DNA from: Escherichia phage vB_Eco_J-01
DNA length: 64,000 nucleotides
Direction: 5' to 3' (one strand)
Sequence record: PQ438393.1
The translations under genes and the position numbers were made by a program. This document shows, one piece after another, positions 58,309 through 58,860 of the stretch. Under the pieces are notes generated by a model. It worked only from the letters and a program-made list of their open reading frames with translations. It made no database searches and was not told the DNA's origin. How positions within the stretch are numbered: the first letter of the stretch is position 1; each line of letters starts with the position of its first letter.

Positions 58309-58860
58309 TCAGGAAATATCAGATTGTGTTTTTAGATAAACAGCAAGGTCTGTATGCCATTTTCCTAAAAGATTTTGTCCTTTCCAACAGTCCTTATTTT
58401 CCACATCACGATCCCACATTCCCATTTTGATACCATAAATAGAATCATAGGGGCTTGCCTCTACGAACTCCTTATCTGCGTAAGCGATAAGTTTATTTTT
58501 GAGATCTTCATTTTGTGTGTATTTAAGATACAAACCACGCTTGACAATCTTCTCCCGTAAAGAAGCCCAGGTATCTTCATCATAATCTTTAACTAATCTG
58601 CCTAGTCGTTTATAATATGCTTGTTCTTTTTCTCCTGTATATCTTAGATCTCCGGTTAAAATAGAAGATGCAATACTGTAATCATAAAACAAACATGCTT
58701 TTCTCCACATCATATATTGTTCCACACAAGTAAATTCAACAGAACTTGTAATAGAATTATTATACTTGGGAGCTAAAGGTTCAATAAAAGATGATAGATA
58801 CCAGTTGCTAAATTCATCTTTTGCCGAGAAGAAGAACACATACTTATCAGTAATCCGCAT
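58309..58860 (-). CDS. NADAR/YbiA-family protein (putative ADP-ribose-processing hydrolase)
   Basis: Blocks FFFSAKDEFSNWY, EQYMMWRKACLF, SIYGIKMG, GQNLLGKWHTDL parallel my recollection of E. coli YbiA. Confidence 0.7.
   Translation of the reverse strand: MRITDKYVFFFSAKDEFSNWYLSSFIEPLAPKYNNSITSSVEFTCVEQYMMWRKACLFYDYSIASSILTGDLRYTGEKEQAYYKRLGRLVKDYDEDTWASLREKIVKRGLYLKYTQNEDLKNKLIAYADKEFVEASPYDSIYGIKMGMWDRDVENKDCWKGQNLLGKWHTDLAVYLKTQSDIS

Follow-up and report, generated by a model that had tools for sequence, protein, structure and literature searches.

NADAR enzymes hydrolyze ADP-ribose placed on the N2 position of guanine by DarT1 or ScARP, but not ADP-ribose on thymine (PMC11543638, PMC11125620). 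Their subfamilies are distinguished by the acid near the distal ribose, with Glu in the NADAR and YbiA proteins, Asp in DarG1 and BC4488 and His in the T4 type (PMC11543638, PMC11825919). DarG1, the antitoxin of the DarTG1 system (E. coli C7; Geobacter/Trichlorobacter lovleyi), shares the NADAR fold and hydrolyzes N2-guanine ADP-ribose. Among lytic phages, T4 encodes an orphan NADAR, gp30.3 or AdfN^T4, which counters DarTG1 by removing guanine ADP-ribose; a transposon screen found T4 adfN to be conditionally essential when the host carries DarTG1 (bioRxiv 10.1101/2025.11.20.689424). Both E. coli YbiA and T4 gp30.3 hydrolyze ADP-ribosylated guanine (G-ADPr) in vitro, yet neither protects cells from DarT1 (PMC11125620), so that in vitro activity of a family member is not in itself predictive.

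The closest described relative of the gene analyzed here was reported by Johannesman, Awasthi, Carlson and LeRoux (Nat Commun 2025, PMC11825919). According to these authors, the phages Bas60, Bas61 and Bas62 carry a NADAR, which they named AdfN^Bas60 (AdfN, 'anti-DarT factor NADAR'). Plasmid-borne AdfN^Bas60 neutralizes DarT1 in uninfected E. coli without any other phage factor, brings RB69, T5 and Bas25 back to full titer on DarTG1 hosts and leaves the plaquing of T5 on hosts with the thymine-modifying DarTG2 unchanged (PMC11825919). For an AdfN^Bas60-type protein, unlike YbiA and gp30.3, the in-cell test is thus positive. The parts of that text available to us describe ectopic expression assays, and we found in them neither an adfN deletion in the native phage nor an assay of the purified protein. 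AdfN^T4, in contrast, is fully active only in a T-even context and fails to neutralize DarT1 in uninfected cells. DELTA-BLAST was needed to link the two proteins, which do not cluster and fall into separate NADAR clades (PMC11825919); they were probably acquired independently.

An AdfN^Bas60 ortholog in a Justusliebigvirus genome

We analyzed a 64,000-nucleotide stretch of Escherichia phage vB_Eco_J-01 (PQ438393.1), hereafter the window, near the right end of which a minus-strand ORF of 183 codons, opened by ATG and closed by TGA, exactly fills the interval given for adfN in Table 1. The encoded protein is identical at 182 of 183 positions to bas60_0111 (QXV83846.1) of Escherichia phage PaulScherrer (Bas60), annotated in the BASEL collection as 'putative YbiA-like N-glycosidase'. 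The sole difference, A99 in the window for T99 in Bas60, lies beside W98 in a column that is variable in the homolog alignment. Length, neighboring genes (a T5orf172 endonuclease and an AAA ATPase) and genus also agree, and the sequence comparison identifies the gene as the syntenic ortholog of the experimentally tested AdfN^Bas60. Its dN/dS is 0.03–0.09 against the orthologs of three relatives (Bas60, Paula and alia), and a copy with at least 95% amino-acid identity occurs in 55 phage records. Essentially every Justusliebigvirus record has the gene. The ORF is a true gene under purifying selection, and we dismissed the alternative of a chance ORF.

Table 1. Features of the adfN locus, in window coordinates.
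Feature	Position	Strand	Size or basis
NADAR-domain gene adfN, ortholog of bas60_0111	58309..58860	-	183 aa
Gene for four CapR repeats with C-terminal T5orf172 domain (GIY-YIG-related), putative homing endonuclease	58861..60264	-	467 aa
Shine-Dalgarno sequence AAGGAGGTG of the NADAR gene	58864..58872	-	direct sequence reading
Terminator-like GC hairpin AAAACCCGCTTCGGCGGGTTTT with T-rich tail	60302..60323	-	terminator scan, sequence
14-bp stem-loop lacking a U tract, 28 nt past the NADAR stop	58245..58280	-	RNA fold

The initial annotation had assigned the protein to the NADAR/YbiA family, and profile searches, the predicted fold and the active-site residues all bear this out. Pfam NADAR (PF08719) matches over nearly the full length (protein residues 13–168, model positions 9–154 of 163) with 125.4 bits (gathering score 35.1; E = 3.4e-36). 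NCBIfam TIGR02464, the model for the riboflavin-intermediate N-glycosidase, scores 110 bits, above its cutoff of 73.7, and PHROG phrog_1017 matches at E = 7.7e-50. An AlphaFold2 model built from a homolog alignment reached a mean pLDDT of 96.3 and a pTM of 0.90, and a Foldseek search of the PDB with this model returned two significant matches only: 8BAU (E = 6.9e-10, TM 0.77), the structure of the Phytophthora nicotianae NADAR (PnNADAR) with bound ADP-ribose, and 2B3W, E. coli YbiA (E = 7.4e-6, TM 0.69–0.75). The protein is a member of the NADAR superfamily. With the defense-type NADAR model NF053876 (DS32_2) the protein scored only 26 bits, below the cutoff of 240, and we rejected membership in that group. 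PADLOC PDC-M42C also matched, at 117 bits, which tells only that NADAR domains occur in candidate defense loci too.

Labels of the orthologs vary among records: 'hypothetical protein', 'GTP cyclohydrolase II', 'swarming motility protein', 'YbiA', 'YbiA-like N-glycosidase' and 'DUF1768'. In their place we propose AdfN, NADAR ADP-ribosylglycohydrolase.

A megablast search with positions 57800–61500 retrieved 61 phage records, mostly Escherichia phages, and the records that we inspected belong to Justusliebigvirus (Stephanstirmvirinae, phi92-like). The best of them, PaulScherrer (Bas60, MZ501100), shows 98.1% nucleotide identity over the full 3.7-kb query, and other parts of the window are closest to other members (ESCO32 at 99.0%, Paula at 96.4%). 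Because different parts match different members best, the window represents a mosaic member of the genus. To the right of ~62.7 kb it departs from Bas60 (window 62375–63467 compared with the extracted Bas60 stretch 13576–14537): the ORFs of the window there are on the minus strand, one of them (63177..63467) for a DUF7325 protein, and in their place Bas60 has a 552-nt minus-strand gene followed by plus-strand genes. ESCO32 and outra match this part of the window at 99%. The position at ~62.7 kb looks like a mosaic boundary near the endonuclease gene.

Several records labeled as Campylobacter phages also match this coliphage DNA, which suggests mislabeled or contaminated entries. By correspondence to Bas60, the plus strand of the window further encodes a cluster of RNA ligase, polynucleotide kinase and phosphoesterase of the tRNA-repair type (~896–2800), a full RmlABCD dTDP-rhamnose pathway (18050–21311), a proteasome-subunit-like protein (23554–24207; Pfam Proteasome, E = 1.6e-5), an N6-adenine methyltransferase (24667–25176) and a Dcm-like C5 methyltransferase (30387–31376).

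Active site and kind of NADAR

We mapped ligand-contacting residues by means of the phmmer alignment to 8BAU, which runs at a constant offset of two relative to the published numbering. In PnNADAR, the diphosphate is contacted by K50, R79, W89, R93, W133 and D130, and the distal ribose by E43 and E125 (PMC11543638). Residues E43, K50, R79, W89, R93, E125, D130 and W133 correspond to E47, K54, R88, W98, R102, E134, D139 and Y142, so that seven of the eight predicted ADP-ribose contacts are identical and the eighth, W133 to Y142, is a conservative aromatic change. In an alignment of 31–32 homologs, five of these residues (E47, K54, W98, E134 and D139) are invariant and a sixth, R88, is nearly invariant. 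The P. nicotianae enzyme, the best match of solved structure, has 28% identity to the window protein, which differs from it and from stand-alone bacterial NADARs by the tyrosine and by two extra insertions, at residues ~27–40 and ~70–83. These insertions are specific to a clade of large-phage homologs with 52–63% identity and are absent from shorter homologs of 157–165 aa.

With E134 at the position of PnNADAR E125, invariant in its clade, the protein is of the Glu type. This residue sets it apart from the T4 type (gp30.3/AdfN^T4), which we ruled out because His would be expected there, although the conserved Glu/Lys pair of AdfN^T4, E36 and K43, has its counterpart in E47 and K54. DarG1 was ruled out as well: its catalytic acid is Asp, and the window protein has neither an adjacent darT1, its gene being flanked by the T5orf172 endonuclease gene and non-coding DNA, nor the N-terminal extension usual in NADARs associated with DarT1, the domain beginning at about residue 8–13 of 183.

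YbiA is the remaining Glu-type relative, and the protein might accordingly be read as a YbiA-like metabolic N-glycosidase, the product of an auxiliary metabolic gene acting on riboflavin intermediates, with the anti-DarT1 effect a side activity of overexpression. Such a role would fit the TIGR02464 score, the BASEL label and the presence, as E134, of the catalytic Glu that defines YbiA. It fits poorly with the rest of the comparison. Identity to YbiA is only 22%, and phmmer finds 8BAU at E = 6e-13 but not 2B3W at E ≤ 0.01. We found no riboflavin (rib) genes near the window gene, and YbiA itself lies in a LexA-controlled operon with dinG, a genomic context unlike that of the window NADAR. In cells, YbiA fails to rescue DarT1 toxicity (PMC11125620), whereas AdfN^Bas60 rescues it (PMC11825919). 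By sequence, the window protein is nearer to stand-alone NADARs than to YbiA, in agreement with the tree in PMC11825919, which places AdfN^Bas60 among bacterial NADARs that are neither YbiA nor DarG1. We consider a primarily metabolic role very improbable.

The Glu-type site bears differently on the question of substrate range. The enzyme could be a broad-spectrum nucleic-acid de-ADP-ribosylase with targets beyond those of DarT1, such as the products of pierisin- or ScARP-like enzymes, cytidine-linked ADP-ribose (C-ADPr) or ADP-ribosylated RNA, DarTG1 being one of several systems countered. Glu-type NADAR/YbiA families clear C-ADPr as well as G-ADPr, on RNA as well as on DNA, and DarG1 and the T4 NADAR are limited to G-ADPr (PMC12945103, 2026). 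As a Glu-type protein, unlike AdfN^T4 (His) and DarG1 (Asp), the window NADAR may act on C-ADPr and on RNA too. The authors of PMC11825919 likewise expect a NADAR to act on guanine-ADPr whichever toxin made it, and consider that some counter-defenses may affect other ADP-ribosylating defenses. On the other side, no anti-phage system based on cytidine-ADPr is known, and the table in PMC12945103 gives the function as 'unknown'. Broad-spectrum activity is compatible with an action on DarT1 damage, and we regard it as possible, if not favored. The more specific proposal that the protein erases both cytidine and guanine ADP-ribose from RNA and DNA, and so protects against ADP-ribosylating defenses not yet described, is suggested by the residue type and is a somewhat more doubtful one. 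The TIGR02464 score and the Glu-type site, which YbiA has too, suggest in any case that G-ADPr on DNA may not be the only, or the main, natural substrate.

Upstream endonuclease, transcription unit and genomic neighborhood

The gene directly upstream had been described initially as encoding a zinc-ribbon protein. Zinc-finger repeats are indeed present, in the form of four CapR stretches (PF21817, 155 bits in total), but a plain zinc-ribbon label falls short: the protein also has a match to T5orf172, marginal at 20.5 bits (cutoff 20), and belongs with phrog_681 'endonuclease' (E = 5.7e-89). CapR repeats joined to T5orf172 form an architecture of phage homing endonucleases, in which the repeats are gained and lost by recombination (Barth et al., PMC10448857), and we take the gene to encode a putative T5orf172-type homing endonuclease. 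Its product has 466–467 aa and four CapR repeats in the window, Bas60 and alia; that of Paula has 390 aa, ~77 aa fewer, with the difference in the N-terminal repeat region, and in most other relatives a gap of matching size accounts for the 5% of the query left uncovered in megablast matches.

The two genes abut. The TAA stop of the endonuclease gene (58863..58861) touches the ATG of the NADAR gene (58860..58858), and the Shine-Dalgarno sequence of the latter sits within the 3' end of the endonuclease gene, 5 nt before the ATG. This arrangement is compatible with translational coupling of the NADAR gene to the upstream gene, as originally proposed, and we infer that the two are co-expressed by way of the abutting codons. 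In Shigella phage SF1-1 the order is ATPase, endonuclease, two small ORFs and NADAR, and in Klebsiella phage 05F01 the NADAR gene has no endonuclease neighbor. The fixed place of the NADAR gene right behind a homing endonuclease might help its spread between co-infecting phages.

A more distant homolog, 44% identical, is encoded in the ENA contig k141_11612 (455 kb, with phage-type genes and possibly a jumbo phage; extracted stretch 5026–6477). It lies directly 3' of a CTP_transf_like (nucleotidyltransferase-type) gene and between two GIY-YIG nuclease genes, with an anti-Pycsar Apyc1-like gene nearby. Location beside homing-type nucleases may thus be a recurrent arrangement.

This neighborhood, together with the gene content of the window, also bears on whether the NADAR deals with ADP-ribose or NAD-derived products of the phage's own making and counters no host system. 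A SIR2-family protein, of a family of NAD-dependent enzymes, is encoded at 32705..33517 on the plus strand (Pfam SIR2, E = 1.3e-22; 'sirtuin family protein' in Bas60), and the CTP_transf_like gene next to the contig homolog is possibly a nucleotidyltransferase of NAD metabolism. The SIR2 gene, however, lies at a distance of 25 kb and on the other strand, and its link to the NADAR is speculative. Among the genes near the NADAR gene and the Bas60 annotation at 1–50 kb and 70–141 kb, a search for NAD-salvage and ADP-ribosyltransferase genes yielded the SIR2-family gene only, with no ADP-ribosyltransferase annotation in these inspected parts of Bas60. AdfN^Bas60, moreover, acts on DarT1 damage without a phage factor (PMC11825919). 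A role confined to the phage's own products is highly unlikely. The label 'phosphoribosylpyrophosphate synthetase' in a related record was not reproduced by Pfam searches of ten ORFs, each of 150 aa or more, between 23.5 and 48 kb.

The NADAR gene had been placed at the end of a leftward operon. It is the last gene of the leftward block, but the block is interrupted by the strong, terminator-like GC hairpin listed in Table 1, which separates the AAA ATPase gene (60339..61466) from the endonuclease–NADAR pair. Being flanked by runs of A and of T, this hairpin is potentially bidirectional, and the Paula record, in agreement, places terminators at the equivalent site on each strand. With such a hairpin ahead of the endonuclease gene, the NADAR gene is better viewed as the second member of a two-gene unit that closes the leftward block than simply as the end of a long operon. 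A sigma-70 promoter scan gave 24 sites against 23.6 expected from shuffled sequence and did not locate a promoter for the pair. Past the NADAR stop, the minus strand of 58200–58320 folds with a minimum free energy of -28.7 kcal/mol (z = -2.8), and the predicted stable stem-loop listed in Table 1 is possibly a 3'-end stabilizer or a non-canonical terminator.

The 3' side of the NADAR gene is occupied by ~800–810 bp of repeat-rich non-coding DNA. Three direct repeats of ~63–77 nt each, with the core TTGAACTTTTCATTTT...AAACTTTAAATAA, lie at 57889–58109, where the record of phage alia has repeat_region features at the equivalent place; they could be origin iterons or a regulatory array. Nested palindromes formed from four copies of AATGAGAATGATTATCA occur at 57752–57869, 46347–46365 and 47240–47258. 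The palindromes differ from the E. coli Fur-box consensus GATAATGATAATCATTATC by three mismatches at most, and the window holds five such matches against 0.04 expected. The best site, 46347–46365, has two mismatches and is non-coding; just upstream of it on the minus strand are TTGATT and TATAGT, which look like a -35/-10 pair. To judge from these matches, the palindromes may be phage promoters that respond to iron or Fur, or else Fur decoys. No RNA family was found with Rfam, either in the whole window at gathering thresholds or in 57000–58400 at E ≤ 1; matches to miRNA precursors fall on the long palindrome and were rejected as spurious. ARAGORN found no tRNA in its scan.

Proposed mechanism and implications

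Taken together, these data make it very probable that the gene encodes a stand-alone NADAR-fold ADP-ribosylglycohydrolase of the AdfN^Bas60 type, which clears guanine ADP-ribose installed by DarT1 from phage DNA. In our analysis this rests on identity to AdfN^Bas60, on the fold, on conservation of the active-site residues and on purifying selection. In a DarTG1 host, DarT1 would transfer ADP-ribose from NAD+ to guanines of the phage DNA, at their N2 amino group, and thereby block replication. The phage enzyme would bind the ADP-ribose moiety of the modified guanine, holding the diphosphate, by analogy with the Phytophthora enzyme, through K54, R88, W98, R102, D139 and Y142 and the distal ribose through E47 and E134. 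Hydrolysis of the guanine–ribose N-glycosidic bond would then return unmodified DNA, and replication could resume. The enzyme would thus behave as an orphan mimic of a type IV antitoxin, reversing the product of the toxin without binding the toxin. The atomic-level chemistry proposed for the window enzyme is drawn by analogy, and we infer that the native phage depends on adfN when it meets DarTG1.

Working from the sequence, the initial annotation had rightly recognized a counter-defense gene. The reversal by NADARs of guanine ADP-ribosylation by a DarT-type toxin, to which it referred, is published family chemistry (PMC11543638, PMC11125620), and the role in phage counter-defense agrees with the in-cell activity against DarT1 and DarTG1 reported for the 182/183-identical AdfN^Bas60 (PMC11825919). 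This reading is correct and not new: earlier papers describe the family and its reaction, and the anti-DarTG1 role has been published for this very ortholog, so that the analysis adds little. For phage biology and its use, it means that phi92-like therapeutic phages are expected to resist DarTG1 hosts.
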